Virus record (IMG/VR): IMGVR_UViG_2534681766_000009
Location: 1-7,461 of that record
From: a virus
Lineage: Duplodnaviria > Heunggongvirae > Uroviricota > Caudoviricetes
Length of the DNA: 7,461 bases
Reading direction: 5' to 3' (one strand)
The translations under genes and the position numbers were made by a program. The notes under the pieces are model-generated. The model saw only the letters and a program-made list of their open reading frames with translations. It had not been told where the DNA came from and did not search any database. This document shows, piece by piece, positions 1 to 7,461 of the stretch; within the stretch, counting starts at the first letter, position 1; every line of letters begins with the position of its first letter.

Positions 1-1224
1 ATTGAATTAGTTAAATCTTCAGAAAAAAGAATTGAACCAACGACGACTAAATTAGATAAAATTAAATATATTTGGGAAAAAACATTACCTCACCGAGAGC
101 TTGTTTTAGGCGGTTTAACAATTCAAACACGAGCAAAAGGAAATAACGAGGCTGTCTATAACCCCTCGGAAATGAGCGACGGTGAGCGAGTTATTTTCTA
201 TCTGATTGGGCAATGTCTTGCAGCACCCGAAAATGGAATTATTGTCATAGACGAGCCTGAAATTCATCTTCACAAATCTGTACAAGTTCCATTATGGAAG
301 GATATAGAAAAACTCCGACCTGATTGCCTGTTTGTATATATGACTCATGATACTGATTTTGCTGCAGCACTGCATGATGCAAAGAAAATCTGGTTAAAAA
401 GTTATGATGGTTCCAGTTGGGATTGGGAAGATGTTCCCGATGTCGAAGGCCTACCAGAAAGTTTATTAATTGAAATATTGGGTAGTAGAAAACCAATTGT
501 TTTTGTTGAGGGGGAAAATGGAAGCTATGATGTATCCCTTTATCGTGCTGTGTTAAATAGTTATCTAGTGATACCATCTGGTTCTTGTAGTCAAGTAATA
601 CAAAATGTTAAAGCTCTAAGAGCCAGTGAAAAACTCCATTATATGGAAGTTTTTGGTATTATTGATAGGGATAGACGTGTTGAAAATGAAATTCAATCGC
701 TTCTGGAATACGGTATTTATACTCTAAGCGTGGCTGAAGTCGAAAATCTCTTTTGCGTTCCGGAAGTTATAACTTTAGTTAGCGAACGATTAGTCAGGAA
801 TCCAGATAAAGATCTACAATCAGTTAAAGATTTTGTGTTCCGTAAAATATCCTCAGAGCTGGATACTCAGATTTCACTGCGTGTGGCTGGCGAAATTAAA
901 TTCATGCTTAATTGTTTTGATGAAAAAGCAAAAGGGGTCGATGCTCTTAGTAGAGCTCTTGAGTTGTTGACGTCACAAATTAATGTTAAAGAGCTTTATG
1001 ATGAAAGTTTATCTCTGTTTAATAATGCAGTTGAGAAACGTGATTATCTTCTTGCATTAAAACTTTATAACAGGAAAAGCCTTTCATCCCAAGTAAGTAA
1101 GCATCTGGGGCTGGCTAATGGACAGCTTGCTGAATTAGTGGTCAGGATGGCTAATAATGAAAGTGGAGAGTCAATGAGAAATGCTCTCAGACCATATTTT
1201 GGTGAGTTTTCGGGTAAAATATAG
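1..1224 (+). CDS. 5-prime-partial CDS (about 407 codons in window): C-terminal half of an ABC-type ATPase (AAA_21/OLD-like) fused to a Toprim/DUF4435-like nuclease domain; candidate anti-phage protein (OLD-family or PARIS AriA-AriB-fusion-like)
   Basis: Frame 1 is open from nt 1 to the stop at 1222-1224, so the gene starts upstream of the window. ATPase motifs in order: signature-like SEMSDGER (nt 166-189), Walker B IIVIDEPEIHLH (D at 250-252), H-loop-like YMTHDTDF (about nt 340-360). Downstream Toprim-like motifs: IVFVEGENGSYD (E at 508-510) and GIIDRDRR (661-678), i.e. a Glu then DxD about 50 aa later. AT-rich composition contrasts with the phage block. Walker A is not visible (outside window). 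Confidence 0.7.
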   Translation: MELVKSSEKRIEPTTTKLDKIKYIWEKTLPHRELVLGGLTIQTRAKGNNEAVYNPSEMSDGERVIFYLIGQCLAAPENGIIVIDEPEIHLHKSVQVPLWKDIEKLRPDCLFVYMTHDTDFAAALHDAKKIWLKSYDGSSWDWEDVPDVEGLPESLLIEILGSRKPIVFVEGENGSYDVSLYRAVLNSYLVIPSGSCSQVIQNVKALRASEKLHYMEVFGIIDRDRRVENEIQSLLEYGIYTLSVAEVENLFCVPEVITLVSERLVRNPDKDLQSVKDFVFRKISSELDTQISLRVAGEIKFMLNCFDEKAKGVDALSRALELLTSQINVKELYDESLSLFNNAVEKRDYLLALKLYNRKSLSSQVSKHLGLANGQLAELVVRMANNESGESMRNALRPYFGEFSGKI

Positions 1225-1376
1225 TTATACAGAGTGCATAATACTTATCGTGACTGTGGTTGGATGATGTGTGTGGTTCATGTGTCTGCTCCTCGCTCAC
1301 AGCAGGCTGTCAGATTTGATAGCGTTTGGGCTATGTAAATTGTCAGTTGGAAAATGAGTGAGTGCAAGTCAGGACA

Positions 1377-1405
1377 GGCGGGCGAATTGCCCGCCTTTTC
1401 TTTAT
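1377..1405 (+). terminator. Rho-independent terminator (7-bp GC stem GGCGGGC / GCCCGCC, 5-nt loop GAATT, then TTTTCTTTAT)
   Basis: Perfect inverted repeat 1377-1383 / 1389-1395 followed directly by a T-rich run; lies between the cargo gene and the FI promoter region. Confidence 0.6.
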
Positions 1406-1480
1406 CTGTTGTTTCATCCACTGACCAGACAGGTCAAATAGCGTCTCAGGCACTGCCCAATAGAAAATAGTTGCACCCAT
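1406..1480 (+). promoter_or_regulatory. Putative Ogr-dependent late promoter (P_F-like) upstream of the tail sheath gene, containing a TGACC-N5-GGTCA dyad
   Basis: Position directly upstream of FI start (RBS GGAG at 1487-1490). Perfect palindrome TGACCAGACAGGTCA at 1422-1436. An imperfect TGT-N12-CCA at 1410-1427 resembles the TGT-N12-ACA late-promoter element as I remember it. No convincing -35. -10 and TSS not determinable by eye. Confidence 0.3.
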
Positions 1481-1499
1481 TAACCACGGAGTTAAACGG

Positions 1500-1934
1500 A
1501 TGAGTGACTATCATCACGGCGTGCAGGTGCTGGAGATTAACGACGGCACCCGCGTCATTTCCACCGTATCCACTGCCATTGTCGGCATGGTCTGCACGGC
1601 CAGCGATGCGGATGCGGAAATCTTCCCCCTCAATAAACCGGTGCTGATTACCAATGTGCAGAGCGCAATTGCAAAGGCCGGTAAAAAAGGCACGCTGGCG
1701 GCATCGTTGCAGGCCATCGCCGACCAGTCAAAACCGGTCACCGTTGTCGTGCGCGTGGAAGACGGCACCGGCGAAGACGAAGAAACGAAACTCGCGCAGA
1801 CTGTTTCCAATATCATCGGAACCACCGACGAAAACGGTCAGTACACCGGACTGAAAGCCCTGCTGGCGGCGGAGTCGGTACCCTGGACAATCCGGTCAAG
1901 CGTGGTGAGCAGGTCATCGAACAGGTCACGCTGA
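1500..1934 (+). pseudogene. FI: Truncated tail sheath protein gene (P2 FI family): about 127 native N-terminal codons followed by an out-of-frame 17-codon tail
   Basis: N-terminus [40 protein letters not shown]... matches the P2 tail sheath FI N-terminus as I recall it. Sheath proteins of this family are about 396 aa; here the frame runs into E-derived sequence read out of frame ([17 protein letters not shown]) and stops at 1932-1934. Confidence 0.8.
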
Positions 1935-2286
1935 TGAAACCCAATGCCGGGACGCTGCGCGGTGTCAGTCTGGCTGCGGTCGCGAACTCCGAAGTCGATG
2001 CACTGATTAAGGTGCTGCCGCGCATGACGGCACCGATGCTGACCGAGCAGGAAGTCGCCGCGCTGGAACTGCCTGACCTTGTGGCGCTGGCCGGTAAGGT
2101 GGTCGGTTTTTTGTCGCCGAACTCGGTGCAGTGACGTTCCCGAAAAATCTGTCGGTCGATGACCTGATGGCGGATGTGGCAGTGATATTTCACTGGCCGC
2201 CATCAGAACTATATCCCATGAGCCTGACCGAACTCATCACATGGCGCGAAAAGGCGCTCCGGCGAAGCGGAAACACGAATGAGTAA
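1880..2286 (+). pseudogene. E: N-terminally truncated tail assembly chaperone E with its -1 frameshift extension E' (P2 E/E' family); no native start codon
   Basis: Frame 2 reads [24 protein letters not shown]...GFLSPNSVQ to the stop at 2132-2134 with no ATG before the internal Met at 1934. Slippery T_TTT_TTG at 2107-2113; the -1 frame then stays open to TAA at 2284-2286, overlapping the T start, as in P2 E/E'. Confidence 0.7.
2107..2113 (+). other. Programmed -1 ribosomal frameshift slippery heptamer T_TTT_TTG (E to E+E')
   Basis: Heptamer in the 0-frame of E, seven codons before the E stop; the -1 frame is open for about 58 codons after it. This is the conserved chaperone frameshift arrangement of P2-like and lambda-like tail operons. 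Confidence 0.7.
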
Positions 2287-4726
2287 CAATGTAAAATTAC
2301 AGGTATTGCTCAGGGCTGTTGACCAGGCATCCCGCCCGTTTAAATCCATCCGTACAGCGAGCAAGTCGCTGTCGGGGGATATCCGGGAAACACAAAAATC
2401 ACTGCGCGAGCTGAACGGTCAGGCATCCCGTATTGAGGGATTTCGCAAGACCAGTGCACAGCTCTCCGTGACTGGTCATGCACTTGAAAAGGCACGGCAG
2501 GAGGCCGAAGCCCTTGCCACACAGTTTAAAAACACCGAACGTCCGACCCGTGCTCAGGCGAAAGTGCTGGAATCCGCAAAGCGGGCGGCGGAGGACTTAC
2601 AGGCGAAATATAACCGCCTGACGGATTCCGTTAAACGCCAGCAGCGGGAACTGGCCGTTGTGGGAATTAATACCCGCAATCTTGCACATGATGAGCAGGG
2701 ACTGAAAAACCGTATCAGTGAAACCACCGCACAGCTTAACCGTCAGCGTGACGCGCTGGCGCGTGTCAGTGCACAACAGGCAAAACTTAACGCAGTCAAA
2801 CAGCGTTATCAGGCCGGAAAGGAACTGGCCGGAAATATGGCCTCAGTGGGCGCTGCCGGTGTGGGGATTGCTGCTGCGGGAACGATGGCCGGTGTTAAGC
2901 TGCTGATGCCCGGTTATGAGTTTGCGCAGAAAAACTCAGAATTGCAGGCTGTGCTCGGTGTGGCAAAAGACTCCGCCGAAATGGCCGCGCTACGCAAGCA
3001 GGCGCGCCAGCTCGGCGACAATACCGCCGCCTCGGCAGATGATGCAGCCGGGGCGCAGATTATTATTGCGAAAGCCGGTGGGGATGTTGATGCCATTCAG
3101 GCGGCAACGCCGGTCACGCTGAATATGGCGCTGGCGAACCGTCGCACGATGGAAGAAAACGCCGCCCTGCTGATGGGGATGAAATCCGCCTTTCAGCTTT
3201 CAAACGATAAGGTCGCTCATATCGGGGATGTTCTCTCCATGACGATGAACAAAACCGCCGCCGATTTTGACGGCATGAGCGATGCGCTGACCTATGCCGC
3301 ACCTGTGGCAAAAAATGCCGGTGTCAGCATTGAAGAAACCGCCGCAATGGTCGGGGCGCTGCATGATGCAAAAATCACAGGCTCAATGGCGGGGACGGGA
3401 AGCCGTGCCGTGTTAAGCCGCTTGCAGGTACCGACGGGAAAAGCATGGGATGCTCTCAAAGAGCTTGGAGTGAAAACCTCAGACAGCAAAGGAAACTCCC
3501 GGTCAATATTTACCATTCTGAAAGAAATGCAGGCCAGTTTTGAGAAAAACCGGCTCGGTACTGCCCAGCAGGCTGAATACATGAAAACTATTTTCGGGGA
3601 GGAGGCCAGCTCAGCCGCCGCTGTGCTGATGACTGCCGCCTCAACCGGAAAGCTGGACAAACTGACCGCTGCGTTTAAAGCCTCAGACGGGAAGACCGCA
3701 GAGCTGGTAAATATCATGCAGGACAACCTCGGCGGTGACTTTAAGGAGTTTCAGTCCGCTTATGAGGCGGTAGGGACAGACCTGTTTGACCAGCAGGAAG
3801 GCGCACTGCGTAAGCTCACACAGACGGCCACAAAGTATGTGTTAAAACTCGACGGCTGGATACAGAAAAACAAATCACTGGCGTCAACCATCGGCCTCAT
3901 TGTCGGTGGTGCACTGGCGCTGATTGGTATCATCGGTGCCATTGGCCTCGTAGCCTGGCCGGTTATCACCGGCATCAATGCCATTATCGCAGCAGCAGGC
4001 GCAATGGGGGCAATCTTCACGACGGTTGGCAGTGCCGTTATGACGACTATCGGGGCGATTAGCTGGCCGGTAGTGGCCGTGGTGGCCGCCATTGTCGCCG
4101 GGGCGTTACTTATCCGTAAATACTGGGAGCCTGTCAGCGCATTTTTTGGCGGTGTGATTGAAGGGCTGAAAGCGGCATTTGCGCCGGTGGGGGAACTGTT
4201 CACGCCACTTAAACCGGTGTTTGACTGGCTGGGTGAAAAGTTACAGGCCGCGTGGCAGTGGTTTAAAAACCTGATTGCCCCGGTCAAAGCCACCCAGGAC
4301 ACCCTGAACCGTTGCCGTGACACGGGCGTCATGTTCGGGCAGGCACTGGCTGACGCGCTGATGCTGCCGCTTAATGCGTTCAACAAACTGCGCAGTGGTA
4401 TTGACTGGGTACTGGAAAAACTCGGTGTTATCAACAAAGAGTCAGACACACTTGACCAGACCGCCGCCAGAACTCAAGCCGCCACGTATGGCAGCGGTGG
4501 TTATATTCCGGCGACCAGCTCTTATGCAGGCTATCAGGCTTATCAGCCGGTCACGGCACCGGCTGGCCGCTCTTATGTGGACCAGAGTAAAAACGAATAT
4601 CACATCAGCCTGACGGGTGGTACTGCACCGGGGACACAGCTTGACCGCCAGTTACAGGATGCGCTCGAAAAATACGAGCGGGATAAACGTGCGCGCGCCC
4701 GTGCCAGCATGATGCATGACGGTTAA
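2279..4726 (+). CDS. T: Tail tape measure protein (P2 gpT family), 815 aa, apparently intact
   Basis: Single 815-codon ORF, the length I recall for P2 gpT. Coiled-coil-like Q/R/A-rich N-terminal third and a long Gly/Ala/Ile-rich hydrophobic segment (about nt 3880-4110) typical of tape measure proteins. Start ATG 2279 overlaps the E' stop (ATGAGTAA). Confidence 0.9.
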   Translation: MSNNVKLQVLLRAVDQASRPFKSIRTASKSLSGDIRETQKSLRELNGQASRIEGFRKTSAQLSVTGHALEKARQEAEALATQFKNTERPTRAQAKVLESAKRAAEDLQAKYNRLTDSVKRQQRELAVVGINTRNLAHDEQGLKNRISETTAQLNRQRDALARVSAQQAKLNAVKQRYQAGKELAGNMASVGAAGVGIAAAGTMAGVKLLMPGYEFAQKNSELQAVLGVAKDSAEMAALRKQARQLGDNTAASADDAAGAQIIIAKAGGDVDAIQAATPVTLNMALANRRTMEENAALLMGMKSAFQLSNDKVAHIGDVLSMTMNKTAADFDGMSDALTYAAPVAKNAGVSIEETAAMVGALHDAKITGSMAGTGSRAVLSRLQVPTGKAWDALKELGVKTSDSKGNSRSIFTILKEMQASFEKNRLGTAQQAEYMKTIFGEEASSAAAVLMTAASTGKLDKLTAAFKASDGKTAELVNIMQDNLGGDFKEFQSAYEAVGTDLFDQQEGALRKLTQTATKYVLKLDGWIQKNKSLASTIGLIVGGALALIGIIGAIGLVAWPVITGINAIIAAAGAMGAIFTTVGSAVMTTIGAISWPVVAVVAAIVAGALLIRKYWEPVSAFFGGVIEGLKAAFAPVGELFTPLKPVFDWLGEKLQAAWQWFKNLIAPVKATQDTLNRCRDTGVMFGQALADALMLPLNAFNKLRSGIDWVLEKLGVINKESDTLDQTAARTQAATYGSGGYIPATSSYAGYQAYQPVTAPAGRSYVDQSKNEYHISLTGGTAPGTQLDRQLQDALEKYERDKRARARASMMHDG

Positions 4727-4740
4727 GGAGGTGACGAAAA

Positions 4741-5220
4741 ATGATGCTCGCGTTAGGTATGTTTGTTTTTATGCGCCAGACGCTGCCACACCAGACCATG
4801 CAGCGTGAATCAGATTATCGCTGGCCGTCAAATTCCCGTATCGGTAAACGGGATGCCTACCAGTTTCTCGGCGTTGGTGAGGAAAACATGACGCTTGCCG
4901 GTGTGCTTTATCCCGAACTGACCGGCGGCAAGCTGACGATGACCACGCTCAGACTGATGGCAGATGAAGGCCGGGCGTGGCCGTTGCTGGATGGTACCGG
5001 CATGATTTACGGCATGTATGTCATCAGCAAGGTGAGTGAAACAGGGAGTATTTTCTTTGCAGACGGCACACCCCGAAAAATTGATTTTACGCTGTCGCTC
5101 ACCCGCGTTGATGAATCACTGGCCGCGCTTTATGGCGATATCGGTAAACAGGCGGAATCGCTCATTGGTAAGGCTGGCAGTATGGCGACTAAATTCACGG
5201 GTATGACGGGGGCGGGATAA
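4741..5220 (+). CDS. U: Tail protein U (P2 gpU family), 159 aa, apparently intact
   Basis: 159-codon ORF, the length I recall for P2 gpU, N-terminus MMLALGMFVFMRQTLPHQ. Strong SD AAGGAGG at 4725-4731 about 9 nt upstream. Stop TAA 5218-5220 overlaps the D start (TAATG). Confidence 0.88.
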   Translation: MMLALGMFVFMRQTLPHQTMQRESDYRWPSNSRIGKRDAYQFLGVGEENMTLAGVLYPELTGGKLTMTTLRLMADEGRAWPLLDGTGMIYGMYVISKVSETGSIFFADGTPRKIDFTLSLTRVDESLAALYGDIGKQAESLIGKAGSMATKFTGMTGAG

Positions 5221-6381
5221 TGCTGGATGCGCTGACATTTGATGCAGGCAGTACGCTGACGCCGGATTACATGCTGATGCTCGACAGCAGGGATATTACC
5301 GGCAATATCAGCGACCGTCTGATGAGTATGACCCTGACGGATAACCGGGGCTTTGAGGCTGACCAGCTTGATATTGAACTGAACGATGCCGACGGGCAGG
5401 TCGGGCTGCCGGTTCGTGGCGCTGTCCTGACGGTGTATATCGGCTGGAAAGGTTTTGCCCTGGTATGCAAAGGGAAATTTACCGTTGATGAGGTAGAACA
5501 CCGGGGCGCGCCGGATGTGGTCACCATCCGCGCCCGGAGTGCAGATTTTCGCGGGACGCTCAATTCCCGCCGGGAAGGCTCCTGGCATGACACCACGCTC
5601 GGTGCGATTGTTGAGGCGATAGCCTCCCGTAACAGGCTGGAAGCCAGTGTCGCTCCGTCACTGGCCGGAAATAAAATCCCGCACATCGACCAGTCGCAGG
5701 AGTCTGATGCGAAATTCCTGACCCGTCTTGCAGAACGCAACGGCGGTGAGGTGTCGGTAAAAATGGGAAAACTGTTGTTTCTCAAAGCGGGGCAGGGGGT
5801 GACGGCCAGCGGTAAAAAAATCCCGCAGGTCACCATCTCCCGCAGCGACGGCGACCGTCATCATTTTGCGATTGCTGACCGTGGAGCCTATACCGGCGTA
5901 ACGGCAAAGTGGTTACACACCAAAGACCCGAAACCGCAAAAGCAGAAGGTAAAACTGAAACGCAAAAAGAAAGAGAAACACCTGCGCGCACTGGAGCACC
6001 CGAAAGCGAAACCGGTCAGGCAGAAGAAAGCGCCTAAAGTACCGGAAGCGCGCGAAGGTGAATACATGGCCGGTGAGGCTGACAACGTTTTTGCCCTGAC
6101 CACGGTATATGCCACGAAAGCGCAGGCCATGCGCGCCGCTCAGGCGAAGTGGGATAACTGCAACGGGGGTGGCGGAGTTCTCCATCAGCCTGGCTACCGG
6201 TCGGGCAGATATTTACACGGAAACACCGGTCAAAGTGTCAGGCTTTAAGCGCGTCATAGACGAGCAGGACTGGACAATCACTAAGGTGACACATTTTCTG
6301 AATAATAGCGGCTTCACGACGTCCTTGGAGCTTGAGGTCAGGCTTTCTGATGTGGAGTACGAAACAGAAGATGATGAGTGA
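5220..6381 (+). pseudogene. D: Tail protein D (P2 gpD family) interrupted by a +1 frameshift in a G5 run at 6165-6169; would be 386 aa if one G were removed
   Basis: Frame 3 ORF 5220-6248 (MLDALTFDAGSTL...) continues as frame 1 ORF ending at 6381 (GVAEFSISLATGRADIYTE...EDDE). Removing one G from GGGGG joins them as ...KWDNCNGVAEFSIS..., close to the 387 aa I recall for P2 gpD. Could be a genuine pseudogene or a homopolymer sequencing error. Confidence 0.8.
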
Positions 6382-6399
6382 TGTTTTTGTTTTATCTGT

Positions 6400-6428
6400 T
6401 TGTTTTATAAGGACAAATTAACTAAAAT
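6400..6428 (+). promoter_or_regulatory. Putative sigma70 promoter of ogr: -35 TTGTTT (6400-6405), 17-nt spacer, -10 TAAAAT (6423-6428)
   Basis: Hexamers with canonical spacing in the D-ogr intergenic region, about 34 nt upstream of the ogr ATG at 6462; RBS GAGGTG just upstream of the start. Confidence 0.4.
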
Positions 6429-6461
6429 GGCACCATCAACAAACCGGAAGAGGTGCTCGCG

Positions 6462-6679
6462 ATGTTTCATTGTCCTTTATGCCAGCATGCCGCACATGCG
6501 CGTACAAGCGCTATATCACTGACACGACAAAAGAGCGTTATCACCAGTGCCAGAACGTGAATTGCAGCGCCACGTTCATCACTTATGAGTCGGTACAGAG
6601 ATACATCGTGAAGCCGGGAGAAGTCCACGCCGTAAGACCGCACCCGTTGCCGTCAGGGCAGCAAATTATGTGGATGTAA
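6462..6679 (+). pseudogene. ogr: Late transcription activator Ogr (Cys4 zinc-finger, P2 Ogr/Delta family) disrupted by a 1-nt deletion near 6508-6511; would be 72 aa if restored
   Basis: Frame 3 from ATG 6462 reads MFHCPLCQHAAHARTS then diverges and stops. Frame 2 carries the rest: ...RYITDTTKERYHQCQNVNCSATFITYESVQRYIVKPGEVHAVRPHPLPSGQQIMWM to the stop at 6677-6679. Inserting one C (AGCGCT to AGCCGCT) restores a 72-codon ORF with the C-X2-C-X22-C-X4-C pattern. No single frame currently has all four Cys. Confidence 0.8.
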
Positions 6680-6690
6680 TTACAAACAGG

Positions 6691-6720
6691 AAGCCCCTCA
6701 GTCGAGGGGCTTTCTGTTTT
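6691..6720 (+). terminator. Rho-independent terminator after ogr (9-bp stem AAGCCCCTC / GAGGGGCTT, 4-nt loop, then TCTGTTTT)
   Basis: Perfect inverted repeat 6691-6699 / 6704-6712 followed by a T-rich tract, 12 nt after the ogr stop. Confidence 0.7.
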
Positions 6721-6819
6721 GGGGAATATTCTTCATTAAAAGTAGTGGATCACGTTTAATAAACTATGTTTATCATATACTTAAAAGTAACTTTTTAAAG
6801 TTGGACAGGTTGGTGGAAA

Positions 6820-7461
6820 ATGGAAAAAGTTATAATTGAGCTTGATAATCGTTGGGAGTTAGCTGATTTCGCGGTCTTAACGAAAGAGTATTTGCAGCTA
6901 TATGGTTTTTTTTATGGCCTAAAAGGAGGATCAAGAGGATATTCAACAATGCCTTGGGAGGGTGGGCACAGTGTAGTGAACTTTTTTAGAGGGGCTTACA
7001 GTGCGACTCCACCAGATTTACGTCCTGTAGTGAAAAAAATTCAGTATGCCTCTCCTGGCTTTATTGAATTGTCTGCTCTTATTGATATCTCTTGGCAGAT
7101 TGCTGAGTTAGTTACTGCTGTTGGTGGAAGTATTCTGGCTGCCAACAAAGTTTACGATCAGGTGATGCGTACATATCGACAAAGAGAATGGGCAAAGTTG
7201 AAATCAGAGAAGCTGCGTATACAGAATCAAATTAAAGAGATTGAACTTGTTTCTGACGCAGTTAAATCACTTGAATCTGTGATGGCACTTAGTGAAGAAC
7301 AACGTAAAAACTTGGTTCAACTATCGGGGGCAGATGAACTGGTTCAGTTAAAGATACTTTTGGCTGTTTACCGACGGTTATCTCCTCTTGTTGAGTTGCA
7401 AAACAGCGGGAAAGCTAATTTTTCTGCAGGGAAAAATAAAAATTTAAAAGCGTCCGATTAA
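6820..7461 (+). CDS. Hypothetical protein, 213 aa, AT-rich gene of unrecognised family; C-terminal half looks coiled-coil-like
   Basis: Complete ORF from ATG 6820 to TAA 7459-7461 (the last base of the window). GGTGG RBS-like motif at 6806-6810. Possible -10 TATACT at 6776-6781. Composition and codon usage differ from the phage block. No catalytic motif recognised. Confidence 0.65.
   Translation: MEKVIIELDNRWELADFAVLTKEYLQLYGFFYGLKGGSRGYSTMPWEGGHSVVNFFRGAYSATPPDLRPVVKKIQYASPGFIELSALIDISWQIAELVTAVGGSILAANKVYDQVMRTYRQREWAKLKSEKLRIQNQIKEIELVSDAVKSLESVMALSEEQRKNLVQLSGADELVQLKILLAVYRRLSPLVELQNSGKANFSAGKNKNLKASD

Follow-up and report, generated by a model that had tools for sequence, protein, structure and literature searches.

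The tail gene D of a P2-type prophage remnant in Escherichia coli changes its reading frame near the 3' end, and the locus raises the question of whether the bacterium has lost the gene or whether the frameshift was introduced when the sequence was assembled. The stretch of DNA that was analysed, referred to here as the window, is 7461 nucleotides long and, according to an exact-protein look-up, corresponds to bases 1–7461 of the draft contig APXD01000154.1 of the ETEC strain E. coli 2730350. The strain is listed in Table S1 of the publication as an ETEC of ST23 from Bangladesh, with the accession APXD00000000 and the reads SRR446753 (PMC5469772). The sequencing was performed on a HiSeq 2000 with 100-bp reads, which were assembled with Celera Assembler (PMC5469772). 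A first-pass annotation of the window placed the shift in D exactly at a run of five guanines and ascribed it to one extra G, which could reflect either inactivation of the gene or a homopolymer artefact. The distinction was held to decide how the element is interpreted.

The window contains the distal tail module of a P2-type prophage

In the window lies the distal tail module of a prophage remnant of the P2 type (Peduovirus), with a low-GC cargo gene on either side. The following features are referred to in the text:

1500–1934, plus strand: FI', a truncated sheath ORF of 144 aa (ORF list and protein look-up)
1879–1883, no strand: junction of a 1414-bp deletion, GGTA joined to CCCTGG (alignment)
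1934–2286, plus strand: remnant of E with the E+E' extension; slippery TTTTTTG at 2106–2112
2279–4726, plus strand: T, tape-measure gene, 815 aa
4741–5220, plus strand: U, tail gene, 159 aa, intact
5220–6381, plus strand: D, P2-type tail gene (baseplate hub, 'late control D'), 1162 nt versus 1164 nt
6101–6713, no strand: 613-bp stretch with a haplotype other than that of copy A, the yegQ-type remnant
6153–6158, plus strand: first missing base of D, GAT AA^CTG, frame 3 to frame 2 (orthologue alignment)
6165–6169, plus strand: G5 run, with a T or C lost between 6168 and 6169, frame 2 to frame 1 (orthologue alignment)
6437–6440, plus strand: intergenic AAA, which is AAAA in most relatives; a natural allele
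6462–6679, plus strand: ogr, late-gene activator, 218 nt versus 219 nt
6686–6712, plus strand: ogr terminator hairpin, AGCCCCTC..GAGGGGCTTT (sequence comparison)

The order T-U-D-ogr of the P2-type operon is kept, FII is absent, and FI and E are truncated by the 1414-bp deletion. The TTTTTTG site of the P2 E/E+E' –1 frameshift (2106–2112) is retained despite the loss of the N-terminus of E.

The first cargo gene (1–1224), inside which the contig begins, encodes a fused PARIS defence protein; the C-terminal 407 of its 537 aa are present. The protein matches PADLOC AriAB (E = 5e-187) and the Pfam families AAA_21 and DUF4435. The gene occupies the P2 Z/fun cargo slot, which lies between the tail-fibre assembly gene and FI, and it is complete in the sibling remnant of GCA_049981305.1 (8112–9725 of locus L007). 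The minus strand of the same sibling locus (2516–4732), at the P2 old/tin cargo position and outside the window, encodes a 738-aa AAA_13 ATPase that matches the PADLOC candidate system PDC-S06 (E = 1e-254) and has a PrrC-like C-terminus. The presence of AriAB-like and PDC-S06-like genes in the sibling indicates that the dead prophage keeps two defence-type cargo genes.

The second cargo gene (6820–7461) is an ORF of 213 aa with a GC content of 38% and no Pfam match. Its product resembles the C-terminal two-thirds of PADLOC PD-T4-10_B (E = 1e-34), and no partner gene is visible. In strains whose cpxP/fieF site is occupied by a P2-like element, the ORF separates the ogr terminator from fieF. In strain TW14425, two copies of IS66 are located at the start of the ORF (approximately 6820/6843 of the window).

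Gene D lacks two bases at positions 13 nucleotides apart

D starts at position 5220 in frame 3 and is closed by a stop codon at 6246–6248, which results in a product of 342 aa (5220–6248). The product scores 69.4 bits against Pfam PF05954 Phage_GPD (cut-off 30.1; E = 3.9e-19), and the gene has approximately 98% nucleotide identity to D of P2 and P37. The D region occurs in about 2,100 of the 5,426 complete E. coli genomes. The native C-terminus of D (GVAEFSISL...EDDE) is encoded in frame 1 and ends at 6381, within an orphan frame that spans 6109–6381.

Intact D is 1164 nt long (387 codons) in P2, in phage P37, and in E. coli prophages, whereas D of the window has 1162 nt. Base-level alignment resolves the difference into two separate losses of one base, 13 nt apart. 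At the first site, GAT AAA/G CTG is changed to GATAACTG (6153–6158), and the Lys codon AAA/AAG (6156–6158) is one base short. Among the orthologues, this site reads GAT AAA CTG in 72, GAT AAG CTG in 20, and GAC AAA CTG in 12. The second site reads GGGGGTG instead of GGGG(T/C)GTG: one base is lacking between 6168 and 6169, for which 27 of 104 orthologues have T and 77 have C. The intact form of the region is GATAA(A/G)CTGCAACGGGG(T/C)GT. The G5 run exists because the pyrimidine that interrupts GGGG.G was lost.

The run of five guanines at 6165–6169 is present, as the first-pass annotation stated, and translation confirms that deleting one G opens a continuous frame of 386 codons. The start and end frames of D were also assigned correctly. 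However, the gene does not change directly from frame 3 to frame 1 by one extra G at GGGGG: it passes through frame 2, in which the native LQRG is read. As written, D is split over frames 3, 2, and 1, and it is colinear with the 387-aa gpD of P2 only after two bases are added. The product of the two-base repair has 387 aa, is identical to D of the sibling remnant except for T207S, and differs from P2 gpD in six residues. In contrast, the removal of one G yields 386 aa, in which the non-native DNCNG replaces the conserved DKLQRG. The removal of one G, although the obvious edit to restore the frame, would thus create a non-native protein.

An expansion of the run from G4 to G5, whether by a read error or by replication slippage, would account for the presence of the run and for the frame that opens when one G is removed. 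Nevertheless, this explanation is contradicted by the orthologue alignment and highly improbable. All 104–110 orthologues examined have GGGG(T/C)G rather than four guanines followed by T. Moreover, D is two nucleotides short and not one nucleotide long, the one-G repair produces the non-native peptide, and the Illumina platform has no marked homopolymer bias. The comparison with orthologous D genes, which had been proposed as a check, does not reveal a G4-to-G5 change, and the expectation that reads supporting G4 would indicate an intact gene was mis-specified: an intact gene contains GGGGTG or GGGGCG, together with an additional A or G in the upstream Lys codon. Of the two possibilities raised at the outset, an artefact is the likelier, but not one of the homopolymer kind, as the orthologues contain no G4 run that could slip.

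Programmed ribosomal frameshifting, by which full-length D would be made from two frames, has a precedent in the –1 shift of P2 tail operons. However, that shift is in E/E+E', at the TTTTTTG site described above. In D, two shifts 13 nt apart would be needed across an in-frame TAA, no slippery site is conserved, and the orthologues all have D in one continuous frame. The probability that D is expressed in this manner is negligible.

A third base is missing from ogr

The gene ogr lacks one base after 6508 (T in 37 and C in 67 of 104 loci), which changes AAG(T/C)CGC to AAGCGC and results in a stop after 32 codons. When the base is restored, the gene encodes the common 72-aa OgrK. The lesion has the same character as those in D, as it affects a polymorphic synonymous site and is unique to the contig. 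The strings with the deleted forms of the D and ogr sites are GATAACTGCAACGGGGGTGG, GATAACTGCAACGGGGGTGGCGG, and CAAGCGCTAT.

The spacer between D and ogr is also one base short, after 6440. The A3 form is present in 12 of 110 loci, and it is a natural allele and not a signal of error. The sequence common to the P2-like copies ends with the ogr terminator, and from 6714 onward their flanks diverge.

The element is defective, and the ends of the contig match two loci in relatives

The deletion between FI and E removed 1414 bp, comprising the C-terminus of FI, the tube gene FII, and the N-terminus of E, with a microhomology of 2–4 nt at the junction. The 144-aa FI' product is encoded on at least six contigs, including Logan assemblies. 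Its occurrence in at least six independent assemblies shows that the deletion is real and that the element is truly defective. The deletion was found in none of the complete E. coli genomes of the collection, and the siblings that carry it were identified only through an exact-protein look-up. Most head, lysis, and baseplate genes are missing from the sibling loci. The element is therefore defective regardless of the state of D, and the distinction between a broken and an intact D does not decide how the element is interpreted.

The sibling locus of GCA_049981305.1 has the identical FI-E deletion, together with a D of 387 aa and an Ogr of 72 aa, and it is flanked by yegQ/trhP, parDE, and baeSR. 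The loci of strain 700481 and of a Sanger-Institute ETEC run are also intact at the site of the lesion. In the Sanger-Institute run (logan:ERR054673), codon ~52 of T is joined to the end of U at 4470–4472 of the locus, which skips approximately 2.76 kb (2434/5193 of the window). Either the strain has undergone an additional deletion, or the join is an artefact of the assembly path.

Positions 1–6100 of the window differ from the yegQ remnants in two to three bases, whereas 6101–6713 contain nine substitutions and four length differences. The haplotype thus switches at approximately 6101. From 6714 onward, the contig sequence corresponds to the flank that adjoins P2-like elements located between cpxP and fieF. 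It is identical to the fieF-site flank of ETEC TW14425 over 6714–6820 and 6843–8000, and the 9.4 kb from 6843 to 16248 contain four substitutions and no gaps relative to that strain. The remnant at the fieF site of TW14425 has intact D and ogr. Since the left part matches the yegQ remnant and the right part the fieF flank, the two ends of the contig correspond to two loci in relatives. TW14425 is the closest complete genome by backbone and was considered as a model of a strain with both copies, but it was rejected, as it lacks the remnant bearing AriAB.

The deletions are unique to one contig and coincide with polymorphic sites

The broken 342-aa product of D is encoded on a single contig among approximately 15 billion proteins, as determined by the exact-protein look-up. 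The lesion in D is present in none of the 1410 complete E. coli genomes that cover 6115–6210, in which the best identity of 98.0% corresponds to the two gaps. Exact-pattern scans of IMG/VR did not identify either of the deletion alleles of D or that of ogr, whereas the intact motif, which served as the positive control, was found in at least 120 viral contigs. Neither the 185,579 species-representative genomes nor the JGI metagenomes contained the signature of the double deletion.

All four length differences are located within 354 bp, and there are none in the other approximately 15.6 kb of the contig that were compared, including 4.2 kb of upstream tail genes and about 9.5 kb of downstream chromosome. 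The probability of such clustering within the window is approximately 5e-5. The base lost in each of the three coding deletions occupies a third codon position with common synonymous alternatives (AAA/AAG, GGT/GGC, and AGT/AGC), as counted in 104–110 independent P2-like loci. About 5.5% of sites are equally polymorphic, and the probability of the coincidence is approximately 2e-4, or 9e-4 when ambiguity in the placement of the deletions is included.

Seven differences in 6101–6713 were considered private to the contig. The population check identified three of them, 6440-A3, 6599-A, and 6637-A, as natural alleles, which leaves only the three coding deletions and 6414-C. The idea that private differences in general are confined to the putative multi-copy part was rejected, because the backbone has four substitutions relative to TW14425; the contrast holds for indels only.

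As the main alternative to an artefact, it is possible, if doubtful, that the deletions are genuine, and that a real hybrid remnant at fieF is undergoing neutral decay in which one base was lost twice in D and once in ogr. The FI-E deletion and the gene losses of the siblings are evidence that the remnant is already decaying, and genuine frameshifts in D and ogr would be unremarkable in such an element. The rest of the contig has no indel problems, Illumina reads seldom give indels, and the pattern of substitutions in 6101–6713 resembles a natural haplotype. However, none of the three coding deletions occurs in any independent sequence. Three random deletions would all have had to fall on common synonymous polymorphisms, and at the end of a repeat, whereas the equally unselected upstream tail genes have none.

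Pseudogenization would also require a hybrid element, in which a yegQ-type left part was joined to the D-ogr end of the fieF site by recombination or gene conversion. P2-like D-ogr regions are naturally mosaic. However, the relatives have the remnant at yegQ, in an orientation inverted with respect to the fieF site, and a reciprocal exchange between yegQ and fieF would be expected to invert approximately 1.9 Mb, asymmetrically around the origin.

The coincidence of the deletions with polymorphic sites, and their position directly after the switch from copy A to the other haplotype at approximately 6101, could alternatively reflect a scar of recombination. Real deletions would then have formed at mismatches in the heteroduplex, or through error-prone synthesis during repair, when copies with a divergence of approximately 2% recombined. 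We know of no established outcome of mismatch repair that removes the mismatched base. Furthermore, a consensus of mixed reads predicts the same coincidence, the deletions have no support from independent sequences, and the problem of chromosomal topology is the same as for pseudogenization. The explanation is accordingly given little credence and ranks well below neutral decay. If it were true, ectopic recombination between prophages could delete a mismatched base and inactivate the genes at the junction. Real deletions that fall exactly on polymorphic sites at a recombination junction would be a minor curiosity of mutagenic recombination.

Two assemblies of the same reads disagree, and one of them ends within gene T

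The reads SRR446753 were also assembled in the Logan collection. The resulting contig covers 540–4076 of the window and stops there. A Logan contig of a sibling ends at 4076 as well, and two NCBI assemblies of siblings end at 4123. Both end points, from four independent assemblies of the remnant, fit a branch of the de Bruijn graph near 4047, inside gene T, for k = 31 and k = 77. Contig ends near 4047 suggest that another P2-like copy shares the sequence from this point onward.

A private T at 2465 of the GenBank contig results in A63S in the tape measure protein. The Logan assembly and all siblings have G at this position, and the corresponding variant of the T protein exists only in the GenBank contig. 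Two assemblies of one set of reads thus disagree at a 'private' site. The rare alleles 2465-T and 5838-T were evaluated as markers of a second copy, but they co-occur in no close natural haplotype.

Copy A and the TW14425-type copy differ at only one of the three deletion sites, 6168; for the other two sites, polymorphism is documented only at the population level. Alternation of A-type and B-type alleles in 6101–6713 was considered as a signature of a mixed consensus, but when 66 natural haplotypes were used for comparison in a minimum-switch mosaic test, the cost of the pattern, 6, was ordinary, with 42% of the haplotypes at or above this value. The ordinary pattern of switches indicates that, apart from the deletions, 6101–6713 may be a faithful copy-B haplotype. 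An intact D with the S207 allele was not found in the protein collection, including Logan; its absence from the collection is uninformative.

The frameshifts are probably errors of a repeat consensus

The three coding deletions, which lie within the last 613 bp of a putative multi-copy repeat, are probably errors in the consensus of a collapsed or chimeric repeat, and D and ogr are probably intact in strain 2730350. The frameshift in D is most likely not a real feature of the bacterium. Both the collapse or mis-joining of the repeat and the omission of the bases by the consensus step are inferences, and may have come about as follows. The strain would contain two or more P2-like elements with the 3' part of T, U, D, and ogr in common. 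One of them would be the heavily deleted remnant, which is located at yegQ/trhP in relatives, and the other would adjoin the 213-aa ORF and fieF. The overlap-layout-consensus procedure of Celera may have proceeded from the unique left part of the remnant through the shared repeat into the fieF flank. Over the final ~600 bp of this repeat, where the copies would differ by about 2%, the consensus may have mixed reads of the copies or switched between them. It would have dropped a base at three sites that have alternative synonymous bases in P2 lineages. D would thereby have acquired two gaps of a single base each, the second of which gives rise to the G5 run, and ogr a third.

Several points count against this reading. 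Illumina reads rarely contain indels, coverage was high in this sequencing project, and a simple majority consensus normally selects one allele of a single-nucleotide polymorphism and does not drop the base.

The call of D and ogr as pseudogenes in E. coli 2730350 probably reflects the building of a contig through a multi-copy prophage repeat, and is unsuitable as evidence of a stepwise decay of tail genes. Biologically, the question of D is inconsequential, as the P2-like remnant is dead either way. The locus contains no new biology: D is a typical P2 gpD in a typical defective P2-like remnant.

Comparison with known systems

D of the window resembles gene D of P2 (gpD, PF05954), which is part of the FI-FII-E-E'-T-U-D-ogr operon, in its nucleotide sequence and in the gene order T-U-D-ogr. 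It differs from the P2 gene in that it is two nucleotides short and distributed over three frames, and the element as a whole lacks the C-terminus of FI, FII, and the N-terminus of E.

The P2-like remnants at yegQ/trhP, such as those of strain 700481 and GCA_049981305.1, are the closest relatives of the left part of the window, from which they differ in two to three bases over 6100 positions. The FI-E deletion is identical in GCA_049981305.1 and in several draft and Logan assemblies. However, D and ogr are intact in these remnants, and their flank is yegQ, whereas the contig of the window exits to the 213-aa ORF and fieF. In K-12, a smaller remnant, yegZ'-ogrK, occupies the yegQ site.

The –1 frameshift of P2 E/E+E' belongs to the same tail operon as D, and its TTTTTTG site is conserved in the window. 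It affects a different gene and is kept in all relatives, whereas the lesion in D is limited to one contig. The E/E+E' frameshift is the only programmed one of the operon, and it is unrelated to the lesion in D.

The lesion can also be compared with the errors of collapsed or chimeric repeats in short-read drafts. The loss of a base at a polymorphic site is not the textbook outcome of a majority consensus. In other respects the window resembles such cases: the private deletions are confined to that end of a putative multi-copy repeat at which the copies diverge, the two flanks match two loci in relatives, and other assemblies, one of them from the same reads, break within the repeat.
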